Below, in pieces: positions 5,130 through 55,671 of a stretch of 64,000 nt of DNA. Made by a program: the position numbers and the translations under genes. Origin of the DNA: a virus (taxonomy: Duplodnaviria; Heunggongvirae; Uroviricota; Caudoviricetes); the IMG/VR virus record IMGVR_UViG_3300011008_000003; one strand, given 5' to 3'. The notes below the pieces were generated by a model, which made no database searches, was not told where the DNA came from, and saw nothing but the letters and a program-made list of their open reading frames with translations. Numbering within the stretch: position 1 is the first letter of the stretch; the number at the start of each line of letters is the position of its first letter.

Positions 5130-5214
5130 TTTAAATCCTTTTTAACGTTTATATTATTTATAGTATAAAGATTTGCGGAATTATAAATATTAAAGCTAAT
5201 TAGGGAAATTAAAA

Positions 5215-6141
5215 ATGTTTAATAAGTCCGCAGAACTTCGCGGTCATGGTGAAAAAATTGAAATGACCAAGGAACAGATGGATGAATTCATCAAATGTTC
5301 CAAGGATATATTTTATTTCTGCAAGTATTTCTATATCATTCAGGATAAGAAAGGTGCAGCGCCGATTGAACTCCGCGAATATCAAGAAAGAATTATTCAG
5401 ATGTTCCTTGCCACATATAAAGACAAGGAAGGTCATATAAGAAATAACAGAATTATTACTCTTGGTCGTCAGGGTGGTAAGACGACTATTTGTACGCTCT
5501 ACATTCTTTGGTACGCTTTATTTAACAAGGATAAAGAAATTGCTGTTCTGGCTAACAAGGAACAGCAAGCAAAAGAAATCATGCAGAGAATTAGAGCGGC
5601 AGTTTTGAAATTGCCTTTATGGCTACAGCAGGGAATTAACCCTGACCGTGGCGGTTGGTCAAAAGAATCGATTGGTTTTGATAATGGTTGTAAAATTTTC
5701 TGTGCCGCTTCTGGTTCGTCTGCAATTCGTGGTAGAACTGTTGACTTGATGTTGGTGGACGAATTTGCGTTCTTGCCTCCGGAAGATGCTGACGATTTTA
5801 TTAAGTCTGTGTTCCCGACACAATCTTCTCGTTCTGACGCTATGTTGATTCTGATTTCTACGCCGCATGGAATGAATCAGTTCTATAACATCTGGCAGAA
5901 GGCTGTTGCCGGTATTAATTCATTTGTTCCGGCAAAGGTTCAATGGAATGAAATTCCGGGTCGTGATGAAACGTTTAAGCAGAAGATGATTCGTGACCTT
6001 GGTATTCAGACATTCATGCAGGAATATGCTTGTCTGTGCCCTGATGAGAAAATAACGGTCAAGGATGAAGTATCTGGAATAGAAATAACTGACTCTATAG
6101 CTAAGATCTGTGAACTGTGGGAAGACGGGTTTATAAAATAG
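5215..6141 (+). CDS. terminase large subunit, ATPase domain only (T4 gp17 N-terminal domain-like)
   Basis: Walker A GRQGGKT, adenine-binding LREYQ, Walker B MLVDEFAF and STPHGMNQFYNIW block. Colinear with T4 gp17 from about residue 110 to about 360, then a stop. No nuclease-domain motifs follow. Confidence 0.8.
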   Translation: MFNKSAELRGHGEKIEMTKEQMDEFIKCSKDIFYFCKYFYIIQDKKGAAPIELREYQERIIQMFLATYKDKEGHIRNNRIITLGRQGGKTTICTLYILWYALFNKDKEIAVLANKEQQAKEIMQRIRAAVLKLPLWLQQGINPDRGGWSKESIGFDNGCKIFCAASGSSAIRGRTVDLMLVDEFAFLPPEDADDFIKSVFPTQSSRSDAMLILISTPHGMNQFYNIWQKAVAGINSFVPAKVQWNEIPGRDETFKQKMIRDLGIQTFMQEYACLCPDEKITVKDEVSGIEITDSIAKICELWEDGFIK

Positions 6142-6142
6142 C

Positions 6143-6150
6143 TATAAATA
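6143..6150 (+). promoter_or_regulatory. TATAAATA late-promoter box abutting the start codon (TATAAATAACATATGAGT)
   Basis: Exact box 4 nt before the ATG at 6155. The identical 18-mer recurs at 13799-13816. Confidence 0.45.
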
Positions 6151-6154
6151 ACAT

Positions 6155-7942
6155 ATGAGTATAACCAACACAGATTTGGCGGCAGTTAATGAGAATTTAC
6201 GCGACATTCGCGATTATTCAGAGAAGCTTGAAGCACTGGATAGTTTAAAGAAATTTTTGGATTCTAAAGGTGCAATCAATAAAAGCATAAAAGAAACCGG
6301 CGTAAAGACTACAGCGGTAGGAGATAAGATAAAGAATGTCATTCAGACATTTAAGACTTCTCTTATCTCGACTATTAAAGATTCTGCTAATAAGTTGGAT
6401 AAGACTCTCAATAATATTCTCAAGGAAGCAAAGGTTGGCGGAAAGGGAGTAATTGCGCCGAAGGCTGAACAGAAGCCAGCTGATAAAACAATATCCGCGG
6501 CAATCACTTCGCCAATCGAGACTACAAAGTCTGCGGTTGTTTCCGAAAGCAATCAAACTCCGGAATTTGAGGCGCCGACAATCGTCAAGGCGTTGGATGC
6601 TGTTGCGAACTTACAGAAAGAAAACAATAAGCTTTTCGATAAGTTTATAAAGACAGAACAGAAATCTACTCAGGCAAAGAAGACTGAATCCTTGATAAAT
6701 AAGAAACCTGTTCCGACCGAGAATAAGGAAAAGAAGGAAAAGGTTGTAAAGCCGAAATTCCCATTTAACTTCAAACAGTTCATGGGAGGACTCGGAACGA
6801 TACTTAAGGGTATTTTGAATCCTGTAGCGTTGATTGTTGCTTTCATTACTAAGTCATTGCCGTATATCTTGATTGCTATCGCTTTCTTAAGAGGTTTCTG
6901 GAAAGGTATCGGTGAGGAATTACGAGAGAAATTCTCGAAAATAGGAAAGAAAATTGCGATAGGGGTAGGAATTGTATTCGCCCTGTTTAAAGGCGGACCT
7001 ATACTTATTAGAGTTTTGGCTCTTGCATATCATGCATTGCGTGTCAGCTTCTTGATTATCGAACATGCAGGAAAGATGTTATTACTCAAGATAAAAATGG
7101 GCCATGAAGCAGAAACATTCGCAGAAGAAAAAGGCGTTAGCATATTTAAACGCGGACTTGAACTGGCTAAGTTCGTCATGGAAAAGATTTTCATGGTGTT
7201 TAAGTACATGCTTGAAATTGCAAAATTTATACTTGCTGCTGGTATTGCAATCGTAATTGTCGGACTTGTTGTCTTGCTCATTGTCGGTATAATTATCGCG
7301 CTTGCTAAATTCGGTAGTTTGTTTGACGATGCGATTGGTAAAGTTGTAGATATATTTGTCGGAATCGGTAAATTTGTAATTGACATATTCACTGCCATTC
7401 CGAAGATGATTATTGATGGTGTTCTCTCATTATTCGGAGGATTGTTCGAATGGATTTTCGGCGGTAAATCTAGTGAGGGAGAAACAACGACTGCAGAACA
7501 GATGAATACAAAATCTGAAGTCTCCTTTAGTCAGGAACTTAAGGATGAATTCAGTACAATGCTGAAAGAAATTACAGCTCCGCTTGAATCTATTAACAAG
7601 GCTGTCAAGTTCATTGCGGTTCAATCCGCTATGCAGAATAGAATCGGTTTCGGAATGATTTCTCCGGTTAATATCAGAACTATCGCCGCAATTACTTCAG
7701 CAGTTTCTGAAGTCTGGAATAATAATGAAGCTACTGCCACGGCATCTGATCAGCTTGCTAAGGATCCTGAAGCAATCAATACTTCTATTAATGATAAGAA
7801 GGCGGTCGATATTGAAGATATGAAGAAGGATATATCCAATATGAAGAAATCGATGTCTGACCTATATTTGTTAATGCAGAGCTGGCATCGTGAAAGTTCA
7901 GGTGATAATCCGTATTTTATGGTTGGCGCGACAAGGAAATAA
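6155..7942 (+). CDS. coiled-coil plus multi-transmembrane protein (tape-measure-like or injected membrane protein)
   Basis: N-terminal Lys-rich coiled region and at least four long hydrophobic helices (e.g. ILAAGIAIVIVGLVVLLIVGIIIALA). 595 aa. Sits just upstream of the baseplate genes. Confidence 0.45.
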   Translation: MSITNTDLAAVNENLRDIRDYSEKLEALDSLKKFLDSKGAINKSIKETGVKTTAVGDKIKNVIQTFKTSLISTIKDSANKLDKTLNNILKEAKVGGKGVIAPKAEQKPADKTISAAITSPIETTKSAVVSESNQTPEFEAPTIVKALDAVANLQKENNKLFDKFIKTEQKSTQAKKTESLINKKPVPTENKEKKEKVVKPKFPFNFKQFMGGLGTILKGILNPVALIVAFITKSLPYILIAIAFLRGFWKGIGEELREKFSKIGKKIAIGVGIVFALFKGGPILIRVLALAYHALRVSFLIIEHAGKMLLLKIKMGHEAETFAEEKGVSIFKRGLELAKFVMEKIFMVFKYMLEIAKFILAAGIAIVIVGLVVLLIVGIIIALAKFGSLFDDAIGKVVDIFVGIGKFVIDIFTAIPKMIIDGVLSLFGGLFEWIFGGKSSEGETTTAEQMNTKSEVSFSQELKDEFSTMLKEITAPLESINKAVKFIAVQSAMQNRIGFGMISPVNIRTIAAITSAVSEVWNNNEATATASDQLAKDPEAINTSINDKKAVDIEDMKKDISNMKKSMSDLYLLMQSWHRESSGDNPYFMVGATRK

Positions 7943-7945
7943 AAC

Positions 7946-8842
7946 ATGTCTTTGATTAAATTTTACGACCAGCTTGATAACAGCACTACGCTTGGAAATA
8001 ATTCTCCAATTTATACTTCACACAAGTTTAAGCTTGCGGTGAATGAAAATATGCTTGTAAACGGAGAAAAACTTTCAGTAAAAGAAATACATGGAATTGT
8101 CGACCAATTGCCTGAAATAAGCTATTCGACTGAATGGGATTTATCTCCGGTTTCTACTTTGACAAAAAAGATTGAAGATTTTACGAACAACAATCTTATA
8201 CGTGCTATCGCATCCAATAATAAGAATTATAGACCGCCGATTTTTACCGATGGCTGGACTCAGAAAATGACAAAGGCAGGTTCGCCATTATCTTTGGATT
8301 TTACATTTAGAAGTTATCCGATTAATGAAATGTTTAATACTACGATGTATAAGGATATTATACATTTCTTAATCTATTTAACTACGCCACAGGAATATAA
8401 TTTCGAATCCAGTGTTAATGTTACGACTACGGCATTAAATTTGGCAGAACAGTCTTACGGTAAAAATATAGGTGAAGCTTCTAAGGAATTGATTGAGGCG
8501 ACACAAGGTAAAAGTATAACTGAATTGAAAGACGAATTTGCAAACGGCGGAGATATAAAAGACAAGTTTAATAATTTTTTAAAAGAAATTGAAAACCTTG
8601 GCAATATGGGTACTGATGTTGGTGGTGCTCCGTTATGTTCGTTAGAATTGGGTACGATGATAAAGAAAAGCCCGAAGATTAAATGGTTAATTAAAAGCTG
8701 GTCGTTTAAACCAGCGATTAATACTACATTGATAGATTCGACAGTAAATCCAATATATGTCGACTTTAAAGTTGCTATGGAAACACAACAAATTCTTACA
8801 GATGCAGATCTGAAAGAAATTTTTCCGAATATGGATAATTAA
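7946..8842 (+). CDS. hypothetical structural protein (possible tail-tube/baseplate junction protein)
   Basis: Position between the tape-measure-like gene and the baseplate module. No motif recognised. Confidence 0.35.
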   Translation: MSLIKFYDQLDNSTTLGNNSPIYTSHKFKLAVNENMLVNGEKLSVKEIHGIVDQLPEISYSTEWDLSPVSTLTKKIEDFTNNNLIRAIASNNKNYRPPIFTDGWTQKMTKAGSPLSLDFTFRSYPINEMFNTTMYKDIIHFLIYLTTPQEYNFESSVNVTTTALNLAEQSYGKNIGEASKELIEATQGKSITELKDEFANGGDIKDKFNNFLKEIENLGNMGTDVGGAPLCSLELGTMIKKSPKIKWLIKSWSFKPAINTTLIDSTVNPIYVDFKVAMETQQILTDADLKEIFPNMDN

Positions 8843-8843
8843 A

Positions 8844-10286
8844 TTATTTTTGGTCTGGTCTTAAATTAACGAGACCAGAAGAAAGTTCTTTTTGAAGACT
8901 TGTAGCAGCATCTGCCCAATTTGTTTTAGAATTTGAACCGGTAATACTTGACTCCAATACACGATACCATTGTGCTCTTGAATATGTTTGGTCAAGATTA
9001 CAAGTAATAGAGAATTCATAATAATAGTGTCCGCTATTATTTGTTTCTTCAGAACGTTTTACGGACCAGTTCGAAATATAAACGATGAGAGGAGTTTCTT
9101 TTTTGAAGATAGTTCCGCCGTAAATATTCAAATACCATAATTTTGCGCCAAAACTATTTTCTCTATTAAACTTATACAATACACGATATGGTCCATACTT
9201 TTTAACAGTAGTCCCTAAAAATTCATTTGCAGCCTTTATTAAAGGCCTTAAACCACCAATTTTTTCAATTTCAGAAGAAATAGTATCATCCGATTTTTTA
9301 TCTTTCATTTCATCTGCTGCATTTTTACAATGTTCATTAAATTTTGTTACTACTTTATTTTGGAACGCAGTATTTGAACTAAGATGATCCTTGATTAACT
9401 CTTCGACTATTCCTTTAAATTGGTCAATACTTTCACTATCTTTATAGCTTTTTTCAGATTGTGTAGGATTTCTGCTATATGATTTTTTCGCTGTTATTGT
9501 GACTTTTTTAGCATTTTGATCAATATCTAATTTATATGGTAAATATGAATCATTTTCACCATAGCTAGTTGGAATGTCACTACCGATATATCCGTTTGAA
9601 ACCATGAGATATAAGAACAGTTCTAAGTTTTCTTTATCTCTTTTTTTATCCGCTAAGTCTTTTTCATTTGCAGTTTGTTCTTCTGCTTTTTTCGGATTAT
9701 CTTTGTTATAATGTTCCATAAAGGTATTGCCCATATATTGTGCAGTACCTTCAACATTTTCAAGACCGGTAGAAACATTTTTTAATGCGCCAGCGAAATC
9801 AAATTGATTCTTCGCAGAAATTGCGGCATATTTACGTAAACCATTTATCCAATCATTCGGTAAAGTTTGACCAAGTGTATCGGAGGTAAAAATCTTAAAC
9901 TTTAAGTCTATAGAACCTGGACTGTAGCCATTATAGATTTTCTTAGTCCAGGAACCAGCTTTTACAAAGTTTATCCAGTTTGTACCAGTTGCGGCGCCGA
10001 TAGCGTTAACAGTATTGAATAGGTCATTGGTAGTAAACTGTTGAAGCATATCTTGCCATAAAGTACCAGGACCGTCAGCATAATCAACATTAAAAGAAAA
10101 TTCGGGCAATTCTTCGAGAACACCGATAAGATTAACAGGAACTTCACCATCATAAGTAGTGAGCTGAAATCTGGAAAGACCATAATTGGAATCATTTACC
10201 GGCGGATTACCGGCGAATTTCTTCTTTAATCTTTCCATTTCGGTAGGATCAGTTTCCTGTAATGTTTCGTAATCGTAAATTGCCAT
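8844..10286 (-). CDS. baseplate wedge protein (gp6/J-like) candidate
   Basis: 480-aa ORF immediately downstream of the gp25-like gene in the conserved V-W-J order. The start overlaps the stop of the upstream gene. Confidence 0.4.
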   Translation of the reverse strand: MAIYDYETLQETDPTEMERLKKKFAGNPPVNDSNYGLSRFQLTTYDGEVPVNLIGVLEELPEFSFNVDYADGPGTLWQDMLQQFTTNDLFNTVNAIGAATGTNWINFVKAGSWTKKIYNGYSPGSIDLKFKIFTSDTLGQTLPNDWINGLRKYAAISAKNQFDFAGALKNVSTGLENVEGTAQYMGNTFMEHYNKDNPKKAEEQTANEKDLADKKRDKENLELFLYLMVSNGYIGSDIPTSYGENDSYLPYKLDIDQNAKKVTITAKKSYSRNPTQSEKSYKDSESIDQFKGIVEELIKDHLSSNTAFQNKVVTKFNEHCKNAADEMKDKKSDDTISSEIEKIGGLRPLIKAANEFLGTTVKKYGPYRVLYKFNRENSFGAKLWYLNIYGGTIFKKETPLIVYISNWSVKRSEETNNSGHYYYEFSITCNLDQTYSRAQWYRVLESSITGSNSKTNWADAATSLQKELSSGLVNLRPDQK

Positions 10287-10690
10287 TATTTTCTAATCCT
10301 GCGTGCAAAAATGCCCTGAATCAAGCCGTCATTCGAAATATATGGAATTTTAAAAGTTATGACATGATTGAATTCGTCTTTTACAATATCAGCATTACCG
10401 CGGTCGATTTTAATCGGAACCCAGTATTCGATAGTATCAAAGACGCGAGGCATCAATTCGTCTGCTTGAGAAAAGTTTTCAAAAAGCAACAGATATAACG
10501 GGGAACCGTATGCAAGATTGAAGAGCCTTTCGAAAGGTTCTGTCAATAACACATTTTCAATCATTTGGTCTAATGCGTCTTTGCCCCAAACTTCTGTCTG
10601 TTCCCCGAGAGCGTCGAGGTCATAATACGGGTTGGTGACTTTCGTATTAGTTAATGTTGTAAAATCTGGATTTGCACTTAAACTCAGCAT
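10286..10690 (-). CDS. baseplate wedge protein gp25/W-like
   Basis: 134 aa with conserved ENVLLTEPFERL...FG block typical of the GPW/gp25 family. TATAAATA 4 nt upstream on the minus strand (10695-10702). Confidence 0.65.
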   Translation of the reverse strand: MLSLSANPDFTTLTNTKVTNPYYDLDALGEQTEVWGKDALDQMIENVLLTEPFERLFNLAYGSPLYLLLFENFSQADELMPRVFDTIEYWVPIKIDRGNADIVKDEFNHVITFKIPYISNDGLIQGIFARRIRK

Positions 10691-10703
10691 ACATTATTTA
10701 TAG

Positions 10704-11489
10704 CTAGCATTTTACGTTCGTATTTCCGACATTATGCGGAATGCCGGTAAATAGGCAGTTAGTGAAGTTATTACACAATTGTTTAGCAGGATTTCTTCCT
10801 AAGTTAACATTTCCTTGGACGGCATTGATATTGACATTGCCATTAGCCCTAAGTTTGGCATTTTTTCCAACGATAATGTCAGCGTCTCCACCAGCATTGA
10901 CCGTAAGCTTACCAGGACCGCTAAAGTCTTCACCGGTATTGATAGTCAATGAACCGTCAGCGCCGATAGTAATCGAAAGACCGGTACGGTGATGGAATTC
11001 GGTTTCGCCGGTTTTCTTATTTAACGTAAGATATTCACCTTGGTCGGTTTCGAGCAGGACCATCTTATTCGGATAGTCTTCCATTTTGAACATAAGCGGG
11101 TTTTTGGTCAAGTCTTGCGCAGTACGTTGCGTGTATGCGATCGCATCAAAAATCGGCTTCTGGATGTCCTTCTGGTCAAAATAACCGCGTAATATGGTAC
11201 CTATCTCAGGAATAATGAAGTTACCGTTCGTACCGCCGAAAAATCCCATATCAGGAACAGCCCATGGAAGAGCACTTTCAGCCAAATCGTCGTAATATCC
11301 GAAAATAAGGATTTTTACACGACCGAGTTTGAGCGGGTCGTCGTTATCAATAACCTTGCCGGTCCATCTGTCGCCAGCAGGGTCAACGGAATTATAGTCG
11401 TCGTTAGTAACAAGGGATTTTTCAAAACCTTGCTCAATGCTAGTCATTGCATCATTTAACAACGAATTCATATCAGGACTAGTATTCAT
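10704..11489 (-). CDS. baseplate central spike (gp5/gpV-like OB-fold plus beta-helix; no lysozyme domain)
   Basis: LGRVKILIFGYYDD N-terminal OB-fold signature. C-terminal repetitive NAGGDADIIVGKNAKLRANGNVNINAVQGNVNLG beta-helix-like repeats. Confidence 0.6.
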   Translation of the reverse strand: MNTSPDMNSLLNDAMTSIEQGFEKSLVTNDDYNSVDPAGDRWTGKVIDNDDPLKLGRVKILIFGYYDDLAESALPWAVPDMGFFGGTNGNFIIPEIGTILRGYFDQKDIQKPIFDAIAYTQRTAQDLTKNPLMFKMEDYPNKMVLLETDQGEYLTLNKKTGETEFHHRTGLSITIGADGSLTINTGEDFSGPGKLTVNAGGDADIIVGKNAKLRANGNVNINAVQGNVNLGRNPAKQLCNNFTNCLFTGIPHNVGNTNVKC

Positions 11490-11498
11490 AAAACCTCT

Positions 11499-12947
11499 TT
11501 ACTTAACCGTTTGAGTATACTTGGTTTGCTTTCTAAGTGGACCAACACCACCAACGCCATCAGAAGCACAAGTAGCCATTATCGTATATTTTGCGCCGAA
11601 AGCAAAACGGTGCGTGAGACCGGTAACGATATAGTTATTGGATTGAACAGAAGTCTTATGATTTACGGTAGTCATATCGACTGAAATTCTGTCACCAAGT
11701 TTAAGATATTGTTTCGGGTCAGCTGCATAACCTGGCTGGTCGGTAACACTGATGGTTAAGAATGTGAATTGCTGGAAAAATGCATGTTTGATACTGTCGT
11801 GATGAACAGGAGCATAGTCATAATATTCATGTGTCTGTAGAAAATGAGTTCCTACAGAATGGAATCTGACAGTTTCACCTTGTGTATCAGACTGGTTAGA
11901 AATCTTACCGACACGAAGTGTATTATTTTTGAAATCTTTTGACCTAAAGCATGTATCGTTAAATGTAAGTGCTCTCGGATTTGTTATGTCAAACGTTACA
12001 GGTGGAAATTTGATCATACTCATGGTAGAAACATTGTATGGATTAAATACATACTTCTTGATATTATATCCGCCTTGATTCTGTAAATAACCATGGTTAG
12101 CGATGTCAATATCATAATAGACGCTATATACTTCTGGTTTTTCAGTAGTATTCGCATCGTTACTATATTTTTTATCATAATATTTCTGATAACGAGACTG
12201 ATGAATATATTGCGCTGTAACAGTTTTTCCGCAAAGCGTATTCAACGAAGTATAATAAGCGTTACCGTTTCGGTCGACATACATTAACGGCATATCGTCG
12301 TCAGAAATCCATGCATGGCTTACAATCTTTTTTGCGAATTCAGAATAGGTCAAGGTTGAATTGAGCCATGACATATTGTCGTCAGGAGCAGAATCGAAAT
12401 CTATAATAGGTGTTAATCCAGCATTTGTAAGAACTACGGCAAGAGTTTCAGCACTGGTAAACGATTTATCGAGAGAAGGTGTCTTACCGGCCATGGTATC
12501 GGATTTCGGCCATACGCAAATATCGTTTAGATATTTTTCAGCACAGTACATGCAATGGAAAGTATAGATATAAGAATCACGGTCGAAATCCATCGAGTTA
12601 TCGATGGCCTGTATATTGAATGTACCTTCGAGTAATGGCTTGACGGCGACATGGTTATCGTCGTCGCTTATCATGTCTGGCATTACCTTGATATAAATCG
12701 TATTGCCGATTTGGAAATTGACATCATGGAATATGGTACCGACGTCAGACAGTTTCAAAGTCATAGTCGGAAGCAACAGGAAGAAATTTTCACGAATGAT
12801 AATATCGACGATTTTATCGCTCGGGATATTATAACCTTTGTCCGGGTCATCACTACCGTATATCAAAGTAATATTACAAGTTTGTTTTGCAATAGCGCTT
12901 GTGCCGATAGCGGCACCCGGATCCAATATTACATTTTCTGCTGCCAT
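11499..12947 (-). CDS. hypothetical baseplate hub-region protein (482 aa)
   Basis: Position directly upstream of the spike gene; no motif recognised. Confidence 0.35.
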   Translation of the reverse strand: MAAENVILDPGAAIGTSAIAKQTCNITLIYGSDDPDKGYNIPSDKIVDIIIRENFFLLLPTMTLKLSDVGTIFHDVNFQIGNTIYIKVMPDMISDDDNHVAVKPLLEGTFNIQAIDNSMDFDRDSYIYTFHCMYCAEKYLNDICVWPKSDTMAGKTPSLDKSFTSAETLAVVLTNAGLTPIIDFDSAPDDNMSWLNSTLTYSEFAKKIVSHAWISDDDMPLMYVDRNGNAYYTSLNTLCGKTVTAQYIHQSRYQKYYDKKYSNDANTTEKPEVYSVYYDIDIANHGYLQNQGGYNIKKYVFNPYNVSTMSMIKFPPVTFDITNPRALTFNDTCFRSKDFKNNTLRVGKISNQSDTQGETVRFHSVGTHFLQTHEYYDYAPVHHDSIKHAFFQQFTFLTISVTDQPGYAADPKQYLKLGDRISVDMTTVNHKTSVQSNNYIVTGLTHRFAFGAKYTIMATCASDGVGGVGPLRKQTKYTQTVK

Positions 12948-20892: not shown

Positions 20893-20900
20893 TATAAATA
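20893..20900 (+). promoter_or_regulatory. TATAAATA late promoter
   Basis: Exact box 25 nt upstream of the ATG at 20925, with AAGGAA RBS. Confidence 0.5.
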
Positions 20901-29887: not shown

Positions 29888-31147
29888 ATGAATATATTTG
29901 AACAAGCCGCAGCCTTCCTCGACGACGAAATCTTGCTGGAAGGTAAATTAAAATCTAAGTATTCTTCAGTTAGTAACCGTACCGATAAGTTTTTTGATAT
30001 TCTTGAACGTCCGGCGACTAAGATTTTGGACCTTAAGAGCGACCGTCATAGGGAAGCAACGAATATCGACGTGATTCGTCGCCAGATGTACGAGCTCAAG
30101 CGTGAATATGACCGTACTCCGGCATGCCAGAGCAACAGGTTTATTAACGGTTTCATGCAGGTCATGGATATTATTATGGATAACCTTGAAGATGGTGATA
30201 CTGACTATATCTATGCCGCAAAGTGGCCTCAGTTAATGAACTGGATTAAGGACAATGCACAGCGTATCGAAGGTAACTATACCAACGAAGCCGTTATTGC
30301 TAAGCTCGCTGGCGAATATATAACCAAGGTTGCTCGTCCTGCATTGCAGAAGTTCAAGACTGTCGAAGGAAAGAAACAGCGTAAGTCCGCTCGTGTTAAC
30401 GTTAAGACTATGCTTGATAATCCGGAATTCCAGCAGGTTCTTATTAACCGTTCTGAAGGCCGTTTCGATCTTCGTAAGAACGAAGGTTCTCGTCCGCCGG
30501 TCATTATTGATAACGTCAAGCATCTTACTTTGAATTTCCGTAACTACGAAGAACTTAACGAAATTCTTGCTGCCAAGGATGAAAACGAACTTTATAACGT
30601 CGTTAAGAACCAATTTGACTCTCCGTCTGGTATCTATCACGGTATTACTGATACGACTATTCCTGAAGGTATCGAATTCCAGTATCAGAATGATGCACTT
30701 GCAGCTTGTGACTGGGGCTTAAAGGATAAGGTTGTTGAACGTATTCTCCGCCGTGGTACCTATTATAACTCTGACAAGTCTAAGGTTATTCTTTTTGTCA
30801 ATAACGGTGAATCTCTTCGTAGTGAATTCGACGTTGGTGAAGAAGAATCCAGATATGTCAACGAATTCGCAAGCCATAACAACGAACTGTATATCGCTTT
30901 GAACCGTAATGACCGTTTCAATAAGCTCTATACGAATCAGGATGTGAAGTTTGACGTATTCGAAATTGTTCAGGGAGAAAACAGTCAGGTTTATATTTCT
31001 CGCGGTACATACGTTCTTGATACAATCGATGACGAACGAATCAAGTATGTACGTGAAAAGGAAACAATTGAACGTGACGGCACAGGTGCAAGTGAAACTG
31101 TCGCTGAATCCGTCATGAACCTGGCGGCAAACTTGCTGATTGACTAA
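29888..31147 (+). CDS. hypothetical late protein (419 aa)
   Basis: Late promoter plus RBS; no motif recognised. Confidence 0.5.
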   Translation: MNIFEQAAAFLDDEILLEGKLKSKYSSVSNRTDKFFDILERPATKILDLKSDRHREATNIDVIRRQMYELKREYDRTPACQSNRFINGFMQVMDIIMDNLEDGDTDYIYAAKWPQLMNWIKDNAQRIEGNYTNEAVIAKLAGEYITKVARPALQKFKTVEGKKQRKSARVNVKTMLDNPEFQQVLINRSEGRFDLRKNEGSRPPVIIDNVKHLTLNFRNYEELNEILAAKDENELYNVVKNQFDSPSGIYHGITDTTIPEGIEFQYQNDALAACDWGLKDKVVERILRRGTYYNSDKSKVILFVNNGESLRSEFDVGEEESRYVNEFASHNNELYIALNRNDRFNKLYTNQDVKFDVFEIVQGENSQVYISRGTYVLDTIDDERIKYVREKETIERDGTGASETVAESVMNLAANLLID

Positions 31148-39070: not shown

Positions 39071-40702
39071 TTAGCGACGACGACGGCGTTGCTGATCACC
39101 AAGAATCTGAGCAGCGATGTTTTCGGCCTGAGCATTTGTAATGCCCGGGAAAACCTGTTCAGATTCCTGTGCCGGAGCCTTCGGCGCTTCAGCCTTCGGA
39201 GCTTCCTCAGCGACAACTTCAGCTTCAGCCTTTTCAACGGTCTTCGGAGTGCCAGCGACACCAGCGAGGCGAGCGCCGAACATAGATCCGAGAACGGTCT
39301 TAAGGTCGAGACCGAGGGAATCAGTCAAACCGTTGGAAACCTGAGTAAGGGTCTTGGTGATGTCACCAGTAAGCTGAGCAGTATTGCCCTGGCCGTACAT
39401 AGTGATGTTGCCAATCTTTTCCATCGGCTTTGCGATTGCACCAGCGATAGCCGGGAGCTGTTCGAAATACTTCTCAATAGTCTTGAGCTGCATTTCCTGG
39501 CGAGCTGCGTCACCGTACTTCTTCATAGCTTCTGCCTTCTGGTCGAGTGCAGCAGCTTCTGCAAGGCCCTTAGCCTTTACAGCGTCAGCTTCTGCTTCGC
39601 CCTTAGCCTTAGTAGCGGCAGCTTCAGCGAAAGCCTTCTGCTTGTCAGCTTCAGCCTTAGCCTTAATAGCTTCAGCCTGTTGCTTCTGAGTGAAGAGTGC
39701 AGCTTCAGCTTCCTTCTGCTGCTTATAGAGGTCAGCGTCAGACTTCTGAATCTGTGCCTGCTTTTCAGCTTCAGCCTTCTTCTGAATTTCTGCTTCGAGT
39801 TCCTTCTGACGGACAGCTACCATGCGTTCGCGGATTTCAATCTGCTTTTCCTGCTTTGCAACTTCAGCAGCTGCAGCAGTGATGTTAATGGTCTTCTGCT
39901 GTTCCTGCTTCTGAATTTCGTAAGCAGCGTCAGCTTCAGCCTTCTTGGTATCAGAGATACGCTTAAGGTCAGCCTTCTTAACTTCAAGGTCATTCTGCTT
40001 CTGTGCGATTTCGAGGTTAGCAGCAACCTGGGCGTCATTTGCAGACTTAGCAGCTTCAGCCTGTGCAATCTTCACGTCGCGTTCAGCATTTGCACGAGAA
40101 ATAGAAGCAGCCTTCTGGATTGCTACGGCCTTATCGACACCGAGGTTTTCGATAACCTTGCCGTCATCGGAGAAGTTCTGAATGTTGAAGGTTTCGACGA
40201 TAACGCCGAGCTTCTTAAGGTCAGGAATAGCGTTTTCAAGAACCTTTTCAGAAACCTGCTTACGGTCAGTAACCATGTCGACCAGGTTCATCTGGCCGAC
40301 AATCTCACGCATGTTACCCTCCAAAACGTCGACAATCATTCCCTTGATAGTACCGATGTCTTTGTTCAAGAAGTTCTGTGCAGCTTTCTTAATATCGTCC
40401 GGTTGGTCAGAAATCTTCGCATTAACAACAGCGTCGACCGTAACGTTAATGTAATCCTTGGTCGGAACCGCGTTCTGGGTCTTGACGTCAATCGGAATCA
40501 ACTTCAAGCTAAGAACGTCAGCACGTTCAAGGAACGGAATCTTGAAACCGGCATGACCGATAATTGTTCGGAGCTGTCGGAAACCAGAGATGATGATTAC
40601 TTCGTCCGGCGCAGCCTTGATGTAAGACGTAACGAAGAGGATGATAATGAACAGTACGAACAGGCCGATGCCCGCACCGATGAGGAAGTTGGAACTAATC
40701 AT
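39071..40702 (-). CDS. SPFH/band-7 flotillin-like membrane protein
   Basis: N-terminal TM helix, an SPFH domain (PDEVIIISGFRQLRTIIGHAGFKIPFLER...) and a roughly 300-aa A/E/K/Q coiled-coil flotillin-type tail. GC content visibly higher than the surroundings. Confidence 0.8.
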   Translation of the reverse strand: MISSNFLIGAGIGLFVLFIIILFVTSYIKAAPDEVIIISGFRQLRTIIGHAGFKIPFLERADVLSLKLIPIDVKTQNAVPTKDYINVTVDAVVNAKISDQPDDIKKAAQNFLNKDIGTIKGMIVDVLEGNMREIVGQMNLVDMVTDRKQVSEKVLENAIPDLKKLGVIVETFNIQNFSDDGKVIENLGVDKAVAIQKAASISRANAERDVKIAQAEAAKSANDAQVAANLEIAQKQNDLEVKKADLKRISDTKKAEADAAYEIQKQEQQKTINITAAAAEVAKQEKQIEIRERMVAVRQKELEAEIQKKAEAEKQAQIQKSDADLYKQQKEAEAALFTQKQQAEAIKAKAEADKQKAFAEAAATKAKGEAEADAVKAKGLAEAAALDQKAEAMKKYGDAARQEMQLKTIEKYFEQLPAIAGAIAKPMEKIGNITMYGQGNTAQLTGDITKTLTQVSNGLTDSLGLDLKTVLGSMFGARLAGVAGTPKTVEKAEAEVVAEEAPKAEAPKAPAQESEQVFPGITNAQAENIAAQILGDQQRRRRR

Positions 40703-44959: not shown

Positions 44960-45607
44960 TTACGTATCCTTTTTCTTGCTTTTATTTTTTTCTGATATTT
45001 CTTTGTGAAGCTTTATTATCATCTCGCAAAAGGTAATAAAGCGCTTATATTCGATATTCTTTATCGAATCTTTATTTAATTTGAATTTTTCATGATACAA
45101 CCCCTGTATGTAGAATTCCGGATCCAATGTACCGGCACAGTACATTTTATAAGCCCGGTTTTCCTGGTTCTCATCCAGTTCGTACAGGGAAAATCGATTA
45201 TTCGTAAAATAATCAAATCCGTTATTCCTTTCTTCTATAATTTTGTTTATCTGGTCAATCTGCCTGGTAATAACGGCGCGCTTGGTAAAAACCTTGGCGC
45301 CTAACAATTTATTTATAGTGTTAACATCCTTCAATTCGGGACATTTTTTGTCACAAAGGCATTTCATCATCACATACATGGTCCAATGCTCTAAATCCGT
45401 AAAAGAGCAGTTCATTTCATTAGCGAGCGGAATACAATAATTGGACATGTATTCCACGCCCTGACTATCCTGTACGAACTGGTTAATTATATAATTCTCC
45501 ATCGTATCAGCAAAGAATTCGCGGAATACGTTGGTATTGAACCTTTTCGCATTCCACATCTTCTTTATATTCTTATATACCATATATAGCTGGTATTTGT
45601 CTATCAT
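44960..45607 (-). CDS. possible helicase-loading protein (gp59-like)
   Basis: 215 aa basic protein adjacent to the gp32-like gene as in T4. N-terminal YQLYMVYKNIKKMW weakly resembles gp59. Confidence 0.35.
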   Translation of the reverse strand: MIDKYQLYMVYKNIKKMWNAKRFNTNVFREFFADTMENYIINQFVQDSQGVEYMSNYCIPLANEMNCSFTDLEHWTMYVMMKCLCDKKCPELKDVNTINKLLGAKVFTKRAVITRQIDQINKIIEERNNGFDYFTNNRFSLYELDENQENRAYKMYCAGTLDPEFYIQGLYHEKFKLNKDSIKNIEYKRFITFCEMIIKLHKEISEKNKSKKKDT

Positions 45608-45981
45608 ATCAGAAATTCATCCATTCCGGTTTTTTTATCAAGTAAAAAACGCTTTTTCATACTCGTTGTAAGAGTATAGCTGTTAATCTCGTCGAGACAT
45701 TTCAGAAGTACCTGTGGTTCGAGCCAGTCGTCAACCAGATATATCATGGCGTCTGCAAGGCTAATCTTGTTTTCCTTGTTCAGAGTATAAAGAACATTAT
45801 TGAACTTGTTATATTCAGCAGGTTCGTTCTTTATTACACGTACCAGATAATCCGGCAATTGAGAATCCGGGTCGATTATATCGAAATCGATACCGGCCTT
45901 CTTCATATACTTGTAAAATGAATCTTTGGTCTGTTCAATTTCGTGGTCGTCGTTGAACAGCAGGTTTTCATTGTCTATCAT
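45604..45981 (-). CDS. hypothetical protein
   Basis: 125 aa ORF between the loader-like and helicase genes. Confidence 0.35.
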   Translation of the reverse strand: MIDNENLLFNDDHEIEQTKDSFYKYMKKAGIDFDIIDPDSQLPDYLVRVIKNEPAEYNKFNNVLYTLNKENKISLADAMIYLVDDWLEPQVLLKCLDEINSYTLTTSMKKRFLLDKKTGMDEFLI

Positions 45982-45991
45982 ATTATTTCCT

Positions 45992-47338
45992 CTATAAATC
46001 GAATACGTTCACGTCTGGAGCCGGCTGTGGCGGTTCAGGCAGACTGTTAGAACCGAAATCTTCATCATTGTTGTTAAAAGACTTCAGGTCATAAATCTTC
46101 TGTTTTTCAATATCGACACCGATAGTTACAATCGGAGCCTTAGGCATACCATAACGAGTCTTAAGAAGCTTGACAGTATACATATCTGCAGCTTTCATTT
46201 CAGGTGTCTGTGTAACGCCGAAAATAGCGTCAGCCTTCATGGTCTGGCCGAATGAGTCAGCTGCGTCGTCAAGTCCCATTTCAGCCTTGCCATAACCACC
46301 GCGGTTAGCCTGCATAGCAGAAATAATCGGAATCTGTTCCACAAGACCGATAGAACGAACCTGAGCGGCGATTGCACGAAGCTTAGAGTTATCGTTCATA
46401 TTCGGGTCGACACGTCCATCCGGGACCATACATCCGATATAGTCAAGCATAATGACATCTGGATTAAAGTCATGCTTTTCTTTATATTCCTTGAGCAATG
46501 CCTTTAACTGGAGCGAGCTTACACAGTATTCTGGATATTCCTTAATCTTCAGCTTGTTATGACCAATCTGGCCTAACATCTTAGTAAACAAACGCATATA
46601 TGCTTCTTTATTCAAGGCCTTTAGTTCATTCTGTGTCTTGTCCATAAGATTCTGCATGATACGTTGACCGATTTTAACTTCCGGGTCTTCGAATGTAACA
46701 TACAAGACTCTCTTGCCAGCCAGAAGCATAGCAGAAGCCATGGAACAAAGGAACAAGGTTTTACCGATATTGGTCGGAGCCATGATAAGAGTCAATGACT
46801 GTTCGTGAACACCTCCGTGAATCATCTCGTCAAGTGTCTTACAGCCAGTAGGAATAACCTTTTCGTTGGTAACAAAATTATTATAGATTCGTTCTGGCTC
46901 TTCGAAGAACGAGAAACCAATCTGAGTATCGAAGGTAAAAGATTCAGCATACGCGACTTCTTCTGCGAAACTGCCAGTATGCTTGTTATTTACACAGTAG
47001 GTAGATATATTTTCTTGGATCTTGCGTAATAGACGTTTTCTGACGAAATCCTGTATTTCGTCAAGCATGAATTTCGTATTGACATCGCTATCTGGGATTG
47101 CCATACATTTGTTGAATGCGGCTACTGTTCTTTCGTCGGACAACAGCCTACGCATTTCAATGACATTGGGCATCGCAGAAAATCTTGCATTATAATCGCT
47201 TATAGCATTTACTATGTACTTATGATCTAGGTTTATAAACCAGTCGGAATTCAATTCCGGCACAACTTTTGAAGAAACGTCACTATTTGCGTAAAGTGCT
47301 TTGATTATTACTTGTTCGAATTCTATATCTGTAGTCAT
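45992..47338 (-). CDS. replicative DNA helicase (DnaB/T4 gp41-like)
   Basis: Walker A APTNIGKT, Walker B IMLDYIG and RecA-like C-terminal domain motifs. 448 aa. Confidence 0.85.
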   Translation of the reverse strand: MTTDIEFEQVIIKALYANSDVSSKVVPELNSDWFINLDHKYIVNAISDYNARFSAMPNVIEMRRLLSDERTVAAFNKCMAIPDSDVNTKFMLDEIQDFVRKRLLRKIQENISTYCVNNKHTGSFAEEVAYAESFTFDTQIGFSFFEEPERIYNNFVTNEKVIPTGCKTLDEMIHGGVHEQSLTLIMAPTNIGKTLFLCSMASAMLLAGKRVLYVTFEDPEVKIGQRIMQNLMDKTQNELKALNKEAYMRLFTKMLGQIGHNKLKIKEYPEYCVSSLQLKALLKEYKEKHDFNPDVIMLDYIGCMVPDGRVDPNMNDNSKLRAIAAQVRSIGLVEQIPIISAMQANRGGYGKAEMGLDDAADSFGQTMKADAIFGVTQTPEMKAADMYTVKLLKTRYGMPKAPIVTIGVDIEKQKIYDLKSFNNNDEDFGSNSLPEPPQPAPDVNVFDL

Positions 47339-47500
47339 TTTATTTCTCCGGGTTATTTATTAAAGTGTAACCCGTTGTTTGCAAATATAGAAAAAAGCCC
47401 GTGTATGATACAGGCTTTTAGATTTTATCTGATTTTTTAATAAATATGGATATTTTCACCTATATAAATATATAAAAAATTTTTTACTATATTTGTAGAT

Positions 47501-54650: not shown

Positions 54651-55567
54651 AGAGTATATCTTTTGATTAAAATTTGTTCAGTTACACTAATTTGATTATC
54701 TATCGGCAAGTTATTAAAACAGTTCATGTGATTACTTATCATATCATATCCTGTAGTAAGCGAAAATGCAACGCCTGCAGAGAAACGAGAATTAATATCG
54801 ATAAGATAATAGTTATCACCGTTGTGAATGAATTCCATACATAAAGAACCGTTTATATTCAATTTATTTCCGATATAAGAAACAATAGAAGCCAGTTTCT
54901 TATCATCGAACATTTTGACAGTTAATCCCGCTCCATTGCTTGTTCTGATAAGTTCTTCACGCATGACCATAGAATCTTTATTATCTTTGGCGGAACGGCA
55001 ATAATCAACCGTACAAACATTACCCTTGACATATTGCTGAACAATATACTTATATGGATTATTAAGAACCATTAATTGTTCAAATTCGGGCTTTATCAAT
55101 AAACCTTGGCTACTACGGCCATTTATCAATTTCGCTACGACCGTATTATATCTGATTTTATAATCCAATAATTTCCATGTAGTCGGAACAGTAACCATGT
55201 CGTCATGTTCAAAATACTTATAGAGCTCATACTTATTTCTGATAATCTTAAGTATATCATCTTCAGGCATACATAATGTAATTCCAGCGAATTGATTTCT
55301 ATTTCTGTTTATGACGTCGATTTCTAAATCGGTCAAAGGTACGATATATTTAATATCATGCTTCTTGCATGTATCAATAAGGAAATTACAGTATTTTTCC
55401 TCTTCGTCCGCATAAGGCGATTGATAAAAATAATCGCAGAGCGTACTTTCATAATGCCAATCTTTTGGATATATGTCACAACCGACAACAAGATTGTCAG
55501 AATTATTTAATTGCGTAATTACGCATTCGGCAGACATTGAACCTATTGCTGTTACTAAGATATTCAT
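54647..55567 (-). CDS. ATP-grasp ligase
   Basis: MNILVTAIGS N-terminal Rossmann-like start, central ATP-grasp fold and LIDINSRFSAG motif. Start taken at the internal Met. Confidence 0.65.
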   Translation of the reverse strand: MNILVTAIGSMSAECVITQLNNSDNLVVGCDIYPKDWHYESTLCDYFYQSPYADEEEKYCNFLIDTCKKHDIKYIVPLTDLEIDVINRNRNQFAGITLCMPEDDILKIIRNKYELYKYFEHDDMVTVPTTWKLLDYKIRYNTVVAKLINGRSSQGLLIKPEFEQLMVLNNPYKYIVQQYVKGNVCTVDYCRSAKDNKDSMVMREELIRTSNGAGLTVKMFDDKKLASIVSYIGNKLNINGSLCMEFIHNGDNYYLIDINSRFSAGVAFSLTTGYDMISNHMNCFNNLPIDNQISVTEQILIKRYTL

Positions 55568-55671
55568 GTACGTAAATATAGAAAATTTTATGATTTTTGT
55601 AAAAAACTTAATATTTTTCAAATTTTTTACTATTATTGTATTTGAATATAAATATTTATGCTTGAGGTTAT

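Follow-up and report, generated by a model that had tools for sequence, protein, structure and literature searches.

A half-length large terminase gene of a large T4-like phage ends in a split-intein fragment and very probably encodes one half of a trans-spliced enzyme

The 64,000-nucleotide stretch of the IMG/VR virus record IMGVR_UViG_3300011008_000003 (hereafter, the window) carries on its plus strand an open reading frame (ORF) for roughly half of a T4-type large terminase (TerL). The features at this locus are:

5182-5189 (+): TATAAATA, resembling a T4-type late promoter, with its first base 33 nt before the ATG of the N-terminal half
5215-6141 (+): ORF of 308 aa, read from the letters of the window
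5215-6030 (+): N-extein, the ATPase half of TerL, aa 1-272, ending ...FMQEYA (delimited by the Pfam, T4 gp17 and S-SM1 alignments)
5464-5487 (+): Walker A motif (P-loop) GRQGGKTT, aa 84-91 (sequence reading)
5752-5766 (+): Walker B motif LVDEF, aa 180-184 (sequence reading)
6031-6138 (+): intein N-fragment (IntN), 36 aa, CLCPDEKITVKDEVSGIEITDSIAKICELWEDGFIK, containing intein block A only (comparison of the tail profile with CatN)
6031-6033 (+): Cys273 (TGT), intein Cys1, the predicted first splicing nucleophile (conservation)
6139-6147 (+): stop codon TAG at 6139-6141, then CTA, then a second in-frame stop, TAA (sequence reading)

The larger part of the ORF is an ATPase domain of the T4 gp17 type. 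Terminase_6N (PF03237) matches aa 81-274 (Pfam, E=1e-17, 65 bits against a cut-off of 22), and aa 12-263 align with positions 97-332 of the T4 gp17 chain 3EZK_A (E=2.6e-37), the E-values against the T4 gp17 structures 3EZK, 3CPE and 2O0H ranging from ~1e-36 to 3e-37. The domain passes the family threshold for T4 gp17-type ATPases with Walker A, Walker B and the adenine-binding YQ all in place. The YQ pair occupies aa 56-57 within REYQ (aa 54-57), and STPHGMNQFYNIW likewise lies within the ORF. Across 38 homologs, these motifs are invariant or nearly so, with R85, Q86, G88, K89, T90 and T91 of Walker A and L180, V181, D182, E183 and F184 of Walker B showing no substitution. The original prediction, made from the letters of the window, had described a 308-aa ORF colinear with T4 gp17 and bearing GRQGGKT(T), YQ, LVDEF and STPHGMNQFYNIW, all of which is borne out. 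It had also taken the N-terminal region to be missing, yet the ORF is short there relative to T4 only: from residue 8 onward it is colinear with the full-length 549-aa gp17 of cyanophage S-SM1, starting at residue 13 of the latter. The N-half is 41% identical to S-SM1 gp17 residues 13-266, and the match breaks off at the junction.

The end of the ORF is of a different nature. The stop codon had been placed exactly at the boundary between the ATPase and nuclease domains; instead, terminase homology ends at 272/273, after Ala272, and the remaining 36 residues, Cys273-Lys308 (CLCPDEKITV...), are an intein N-fragment. The C-L-x-x-D-x-x-I-T-V of this tail corresponds to intein block A (family consensus C-L-x-G-D-E-x-V-T-I), and, as in class 1 inteins, a Cys nucleophile stands at intein position 1 inside the block (Cys273, followed by L-C-P-D-E-K-I-T-V). 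A profile of 23 diverse tails matches PDB 6DSL_A, 'Consensus engineered intein CatN' (E=4.7e-8), with archaeal PolII inteins, matched at their N-termini, coming next. The Cat intein represents a consensus of GOS-TerL and AceL-TerL, known atypical natural split inteins of T4-like terminases (PMC11766414; PDB 6DSL). A PDB search with the single 36-aa tail sequence gave no significant match, only the profile of tails doing so, and the tail is therefore easily overlooked. Every one of the best 120 homologs (52-92% identical, lengths 218-359 aa, 285-319 aa in 114 of them) carries such a tail, which is 30-39 aa long in 117 of the 120 and begins with Cys1 in all 120. The IntN end, ELW-x-DGF[IL]K, is conserved as well. 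Unsplit relatives have a native Cys at the position of Cys273, reading FRVEFE/CEFLGS in S-SM1 and QEYA/CKFLGS in the locus L293 (here and below, a slash marks the junction).

The nuclease domain with its three catalytic acidic residues is not part of the ORF polypeptide, in agreement with the original prediction, and a separate gene, P0383, supplies them. The next ORF, at 6155-7942, encodes 595 aa in another frame with long hydrophobic stretches; it has neither a Pfam match nor terminase similarity, and its description as an unrelated gene rich in transmembrane segments stands. P0383 and a copy of the window's gene lie together on a 425-kb JGI contig, 3300041166|Ga0453052_1263495:

115,503-116,561 (-): P0383, 352 aa, intein C-fragment (IntC) plus nuclease half
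160,456-161,382 (+): the exact 308-aa ORF of the window

On this contig, the two halves are divergent, on opposite strands, with 43.9 kb between them. The window and the contig are 96.6% identical over the 16 kb compared; by this correspondence the partner, which lies upstream on the contig, would be expected ~39 kb before position 1 of the window.

P0383 consists of a 101-aa IntC (Met1-Asn101), Cys102 at the +1 position, and an RNase-H-like nuclease half. Residues 1-112 match the profile of aquatic IntC sequences of the AceL/GOS/Cat family (hhalign probability 99.3%, E=1.4e-20, 33% identity), and CatC matches the IntC with E=1e-4. Block B reads S35-D-D-H38 and the IntC ends in H100-N101, followed by C102, so that P0383 contributes the block B His, penultimate His, terminal Asn and +1 Cys of a class 1 intein. 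Structurally, the first ~100 residues of the AlphaFold model of P0383 (mean pLDDT 83) match the solved inteins VidaL (E=2.5e-7), gp41-1 and Npu DnaE over ~100-110 aligned columns, and the model also matches the nuclease domain of RB49/T4 gp17 (TM 0.88, E=1e-15). At the sequence level, Terminase_6C covers residues 149-307 (Pfam, E=1.2e-13), and residues 99-306 align with positions 351-550 of 3EZK_A (E ~2e-18), equivalent to 376-574 in 3CPE_A, a chain that is 25 positions longer at the front. D152, E210 and D297/D298 align on the LDCSEG, IELN and HDD motifs, which we take to carry the T4 catalytic residues D401, E458 and D542. In an alignment of 40 C-halves, diverged to ~50% identity, H38, H100, N101, C102, D152, E210, D297 and D298 show no variation.

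Joined in silico, the N-extein (1-272) and the C-extein (102-352) give a product of 523 aa, which aligns without a gap across the junction to the TerL proteins of L293 (546 aa), S-SM1 and phiEa2809. The intein thus sits exactly before a natively conserved Cys at the ATPase/nuclease hinge (~T4 residue 353/354). We consider it highly probable that an atypical natural split intein divides this large terminase, that the ORF encodes its N-terminal precursor, and that the partner, encoded ~44 kb away, is joined to it by trans-splicing. In this scheme, late transcription of the two genes would start at separate TATAAATA promoters. The short IntN would dock on a partly folded IntC to complete the HINT fold, and class 1 trans-splicing would follow, with a thioester at Cys1, transfer to Cys+1 and cyclization of the Asn. 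A 137-aa intein would be removed and ...FMQEYA joined to CSFIGSS..., creating the junction tryptic peptide DLGIQTFMQEYACSFIGSSPTLISSECLEK. A normal full-length TerL is expected because the tail has Cys1 and the partner has the block B His, the His-Asn pair and Cys+1; this covalent 523-aa T4-type enzyme would both translocate and cut DNA. The headline of the original prediction, a terminase present only as a stand-alone ATPase, thereby gives way to a split-intein precursor whose 36-aa tail carries Cys1, and one of its own alternatives, a nuclease domain encoded elsewhere after an intein insertion, proves essentially right.

The dispersed arrangement is not restricted to one assembly. Six IMG/VR contigs carry both halves far apart (identities are those of the N-half to the window ORF):

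3300037454_000507, 69 kb: N-half 99% identical, 54,658-55,581 (+); C-half 8,255-9,310 (-); gap 45.3 kb
3300028832_000001, 416 kb: N-half 75%, 104,931-105,848 (+); C-half 45,231-46,283 (-); gap 58.6 kb
3300037455_000543, 424 kb: N-half 75%, 185,460-186,377 (+); C-half 239,806-240,861 (+); gap 53.4 kb
3300023371_000061, 411 kb: N-half 69%, 271,682-272,638 (-); C-half 331,182-332,231 (+); gap 58.5 kb
3300018430_000021, 291 kb: N-half 69%, 154,971-155,927 (+); C-half 95,378-96,427 (-); gap 58.5 kb
3300028805_000046, 185 kb: N-half 56%, 116,556-117,434 (+); C-half 163,968-165,065 (-); gap 46.5 kb

Among these six, the halves share a strand on the 424-kb contig only. Of the window's own clade, 18 loci were examined over ±10 kb around the N-half and none showed a C-half; the same holds for three more distant relatives on 233-417-kb contigs and for most of the other relatives tested over this range. 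Other layouts are found elsewhere in the family:

L245, 142-kb contig (also L246-L248): C-half 8850-9896 (-), N-half 10001-10951 (+), 104-bp spacer
L293, IMGVR_UViG_3300017971_000002, 202 kb: intein-less 546-aa TerL, 9980-11617 (+), QEYA/CKFLGS

The N-halves of the L245 clade share 65% identity with the window ORF; here the C-half is the direct upstream neighbor in divergent orientation, possibly a transitional state between the adjacent 'fractured' layout and the one with halves dispersed over 44-59 kb. The empty insertion site is seen in L293, whose N-half has 51% identity to the window ORF. Aquatic-type C-halves were found on 517 IMG/VR contigs, and in most loci with upstream sequence the N-half lies directly upstream of the C-half with a gap of a few bases to ~1.5 kb, some of the genes being contiguous. 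TnpB/OrfB_IS605 (Cas12f-like) genes occur a few kb from the N-half in two relatives with large contigs, at the loci L107 (13498-14796 and 16313-17524) and L111 (7222-8592); such genes are possible agents of the rearrangements that parted the halves.

The upstream regions of both genes suggest how two distant halves could be produced together. The window contains 32 copies of TATAAATA, which we take to be the T4 late-promoter consensus, where 11.1 are expected, a three-fold excess that none of 100 shuffles reached; most copies lie 20-40 nt upstream of ORF starts (examples are 1267-1274, 2199-2206, 2975-2982, 5155-5162(-), 5182-5189, 6143-6150, 20893-20900 and 47463-47470). This distribution suggests T4-type late transcription in this phage. 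The motif also starts 26 nt upstream of the ATG of the partner (locus L382, on the 425-kb contig) and is found upstream of the C-half in 8 of the 10 lineages checked, which points to late production of each half from a separate promoter.

Several points weigh against the trans-splicing interpretation. Splicing itself is an inference, trans-splicing through Cys1 and Cys+1, as in AceL-TerL and Cat, being the most likely route. Co-expression can be read from the promoter motifs only, because the halves are far apart and on opposite strands. The partner was located on the 96.6%-identical contig and on those of relatives rather than on the window's own molecule. Finally, Pfam intein models score below threshold on the IntC of P0383, which leaves the family profile, the CatC match and the fold as the grounds for its assignment.

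The alternative that best survives these points, although we judge it unlikely, is that the halves associate without splicing, IntN and IntC acting as a non-covalent dimerization module of a two-polypeptide terminase. Split-intein fragments do bind tightly ahead of any chemistry (PMC11766414), and the penultimate region reads N-H-N against the S-H-N of most relatives. What speaks against it is the invariance of residues required for catalysis only, namely Cys1 in all 120 N-halves and the block B His, His-Asn and Cys+1 in all 40 C-halves: a binding-only module would hardly retain them at ~50% identity divergence, and the family members AceL-TerL, GOS-TerL and Cat splice when tested (PMC11766414). 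A truly stand-alone ATPase, with packaging that uses no nuclease or an unrelated one, is very improbable. It would fit the finding of a nuclease domain neither in the ORF nor elsewhere in the 64-kb window; however, an IntC-nuclease gene with an intact D/E/D set lies on the same contig in the window's own lineage and on the contigs of six relatives, and a conserved 36-aa intein tail would be purposeless in such a protein. The nuclease-free packaging offered by the original prediction is thus unsupported, all three acidic residues being retained in the partner. An artifact or pseudogene (a frameshift, a terL decaying after a premature stop, or an error of sequencing or assembly) would account for an ORF of about half the normal TerL length and is of negligible probability, since the identical 308-aa protein is recorded in 89 blocks of independent assemblies, all of the best 120 homologs end with the same kind of tail, no downstream frame codes for terminase sequence, and readthrough or a frameshift at 6130-6160, which had been proposed for checking, is excluded by the in-frame TAA two codons after the TAG and by the unrelated ORF downstream.

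The searches for the nuclease half delimit where it can be found. The original prediction had called for a search for a nuclease ORF, which failed within the window and succeeded on the near-identical 425-kb contig. Within the window, comparison of the six-frame translation with a profile hidden Markov model (HMM) of 53 C-halves, with all filters off, gave no nuclease half; tblastn with the whole S-SM1 and phiEa2809 TerL proteins matched the ATPase half only, and a regular-expression search for HN[CST] gave no partner. A weak CatC tblastn match at 30722-30889 (E=0.001) was dropped for want of HMM support. The 3.7 kb beyond the end of the window, reached via its last gene, contain UvsW and UvsX and no terminase. 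At the database level, the CatC sequence, taken from the PDB alignment, served as the seed for aquatic IntC-TerL starts, which read M...SHN/CEFLGS; a word-indexed protein search with CatC returned only 15 short aquatic fragments. The aquatic IntC profile gave 1597 matches among 1.84 billion representatives, many of them IntC-plus-nuclease proteins of 360-420 aa, and none of the 150 representatives listed could be assigned to the window's clade (junction NHNC, not SHNC). A locus search keyed on [ILV][VIL]SHNCxFxG returned aquatic contigs only, and mirror-tree correlation for choosing the matching C-half representative gave no discrimination, with ten candidate clusters on short contigs only. 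A locus search with the N-half alignment yielded 80 loci, among them the L245 clade with the C-half next door, which SHNC-based patterns had missed because its junction reads L-I-N-H-N/C-S-F-L-G-S. With the C-half of this clade as seed, ~85 related C-halves were obtained, most of 344-400 aa and nearly all with PF17289, and an alignment of 40 of them was used to locate C-halves on contigs carrying the N-half.

Among characterized systems, the closest are the atypical TerL split inteins described by Thiel et al. (2014) and Bachmann & Mootz (2015), as summarized in PMC11766414. The IntN and IntC measure 25 and 104 aa in AceL-TerL, 37 and 115 aa in GOS-TerL and 30 and 104 aa in Cat-TerL, and all three use Cys+1; trans-splicing was demonstrated experimentally for AceL-TerL and Cat, and AceL-TerL works best at 8 °C (PMC11766414). 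For the GOS terminase, the split intein was described as 'fractured at an unusual point', its C-part having all N-terminal motifs but N1, and a C-part length of 122 aa is given in the same study (Dassa et al. 2009, PMC2677866). The present pair shares with this family the host protein, a T4-type large terminase, and insertion directly before the Cys of C-[ESD]-F-[LI]-G-S, the C-exteins starting CEFLGS or CSFIGS at the equal TerL position. Both fragments are homologous, the split falls after block A (IntN of 25-37 aa, here 36; IntC of 101-122 aa, here 101, with blocks B, F and G), and Cys1 and Cys+1 are as in AceL and Cat. Unlike those inteins, the IntC here shows only ~33% identity to them and ends in L-I-N-H-N rather than I-[VI]-S-H-N, and the IntN has the extra conserved end noted above. 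The contigs also differ, being 142-425 kb with sample names suggesting gut or rumen here and coming from lake or ocean there, and the halves lie 44-59 kb apart, mostly on opposite strands, whereas they are adjacent in AceL, GOS and Cat.

Much the same distinction applies to the environmental-phage 'fractured genes' (Dassa et al. 2009, PMC2677866), in which a housekeeping gene is likewise divided into two ORFs, each with a split-intein part, a layout shared by most aquatic IMG/VR relatives. Here, by contrast, the halves are not neighbors, stand on opposite strands, and have no free-standing homing endonuclease gene between them; among the window's lineage and the relatives tested over ±10 kb, adjacent halves, which in fractured genes typically flank such an endonuclease gene, occur in the L245 clade alone.

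In Synechocystis and Nostoc, dnaE-n and dnaE-c provide an essential enzyme from two distant genes on opposite strands that is rebuilt by protein trans-splicing. The terminase halves share the wide separation and opposite orientation of this system, and the structural matches of the IntC model include the Npu DnaE intein. Split DnaE differs in being a cellular gene of another host protein, split at the canonical point (IntN ~100 aa, IntC ~36 aa), with no close sequence relationship. By this comparison, the dispersed arrangement appears nearer to dnaE-n/dnaE-c than to a phage fractured gene.

Contiguous inteins also occur in TerL:

L026, 2878-4953: 691-aa TerL of Nitratidesulfovibrio phage SRB7757 (PV062637.1, an unannotated record) with a contiguous ~136-aa mini-intein

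This intein belongs to a related family in the same protein and matches CatC (E=1.4e-12); unlike the split intein, it is contiguous and sits at Walker B (FIDE/CVTGDT...TSHN/CAFIP) instead of the junction between the ATPase and nuclease domains. In metagenomic TerL proteins of 800-1040 aa (P0136, P0139, P0142, P0146, P0152, P0166 and others), up to three or four inteins of the family of the split TerL inteins are present, inserted at the P-loop GK[ST], at the Walker B DE and at QEYA/C. TerL thus appears to be a hotspot for this intein family.

The genomic context is that of a large T4-like phage. Pfam matches near the halves include Gp23 (major capsid protein), Peptidase_S77 (prohead protease) and T4_CASP, together with weak matches to T4 neck and baseplate families, a RegA-type translational regulator, UvsW and UvsX. 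In the 425-kb assembly, gene calling divides the RegA-like gene (PF01818; L382, 4595-4993) immediately upstream of the C-half into two short ORFs instead of the single 132-aa gene of five other assemblies (L383-L387); the two ORFs could reflect a frameshift or a sequencing error. The window also codes for NrdD, a DnaB-like helicase and an SPFH/flotillin-like protein. Compared with the solved NrdD 8P23, the phage enzyme (16731-19223 (+), 830 aa, with an ATP-cone) contains ~60-70 additional residues (aa ~417-487), a stretch too short to be an intein. The SPFH/flotillin-like protein (39071-40702 (-), 543 aa) combines an SPFH/Band 7 domain (E=3e-23) with a flotillin domain, a membrane-scaffold-like combination unusual in phage. 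The contigs of the clade measure 142-425 kb, and their sample names suggest a gut or ruminant (rumen) origin.

Split-intein TerL proteins were known already, and the novel twist is the dispersed gene arrangement only. Within the known atypical family of TerL split inteins, the intein is an allelic member that shares host protein, insertion site, split point and chemistry with the others; it is set apart by its divergent IntC/IntN subfamily, by the large T4-like phages that carry it, and by halves that are dispersed, mostly on opposite strands, with no endonuclease gene between them. No description of a dispersed split terminase was found in the full-text literature searched, the coverage of which is incomplete, although searches aimed at split terminases were included; the dispersed, fixed arrangement has a moderate chance of being new in its own right. 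More tentatively, a whole clade of large T4-like phages may build its packaging motor only by trans-splicing of halves scattered over 44-59 kb, usually on opposite strands, and driven by their own late promoters, which would make this a dispersed split intein fixed in a virus and distinct from a transient 'fractured gene' stage; we hold this broader proposal to be possible, with the odds somewhat against it.

If correct, the dispersed split TerL could serve as a post-translational checkpoint on packaging. There are practical consequences for genome annotators, who should treat a half-length TerL ORF with the ending C-L-x-G-D-x-x-[VI]-T-[VI] as a split-intein precursor and not as a truncated or domain-only terminase, as otherwise TerL-based phylogenies and completeness checks would mis-score such phage genomes. 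Protein labeling places a high value on atypical split inteins whose IntN is no larger than a peptide, few natural ones have been characterized, and this clade offers many divergent IntN/IntC pairs, from warm environments if the gut or rumen origin holds. Should the hosts be bacteria of the warm-blooded gut or rumen, these would amount to more than 100 natural short-IntN split inteins adapted to ~37-39 °C. For the biology of these phages, the arrangement would mean that an essential virion-assembly enzyme can remain dependent on trans-splicing after its halves have drifted tens of kilobases apart, and such dependence despite wide separation would imply that the intein has long been fixed and is not a transient invader.

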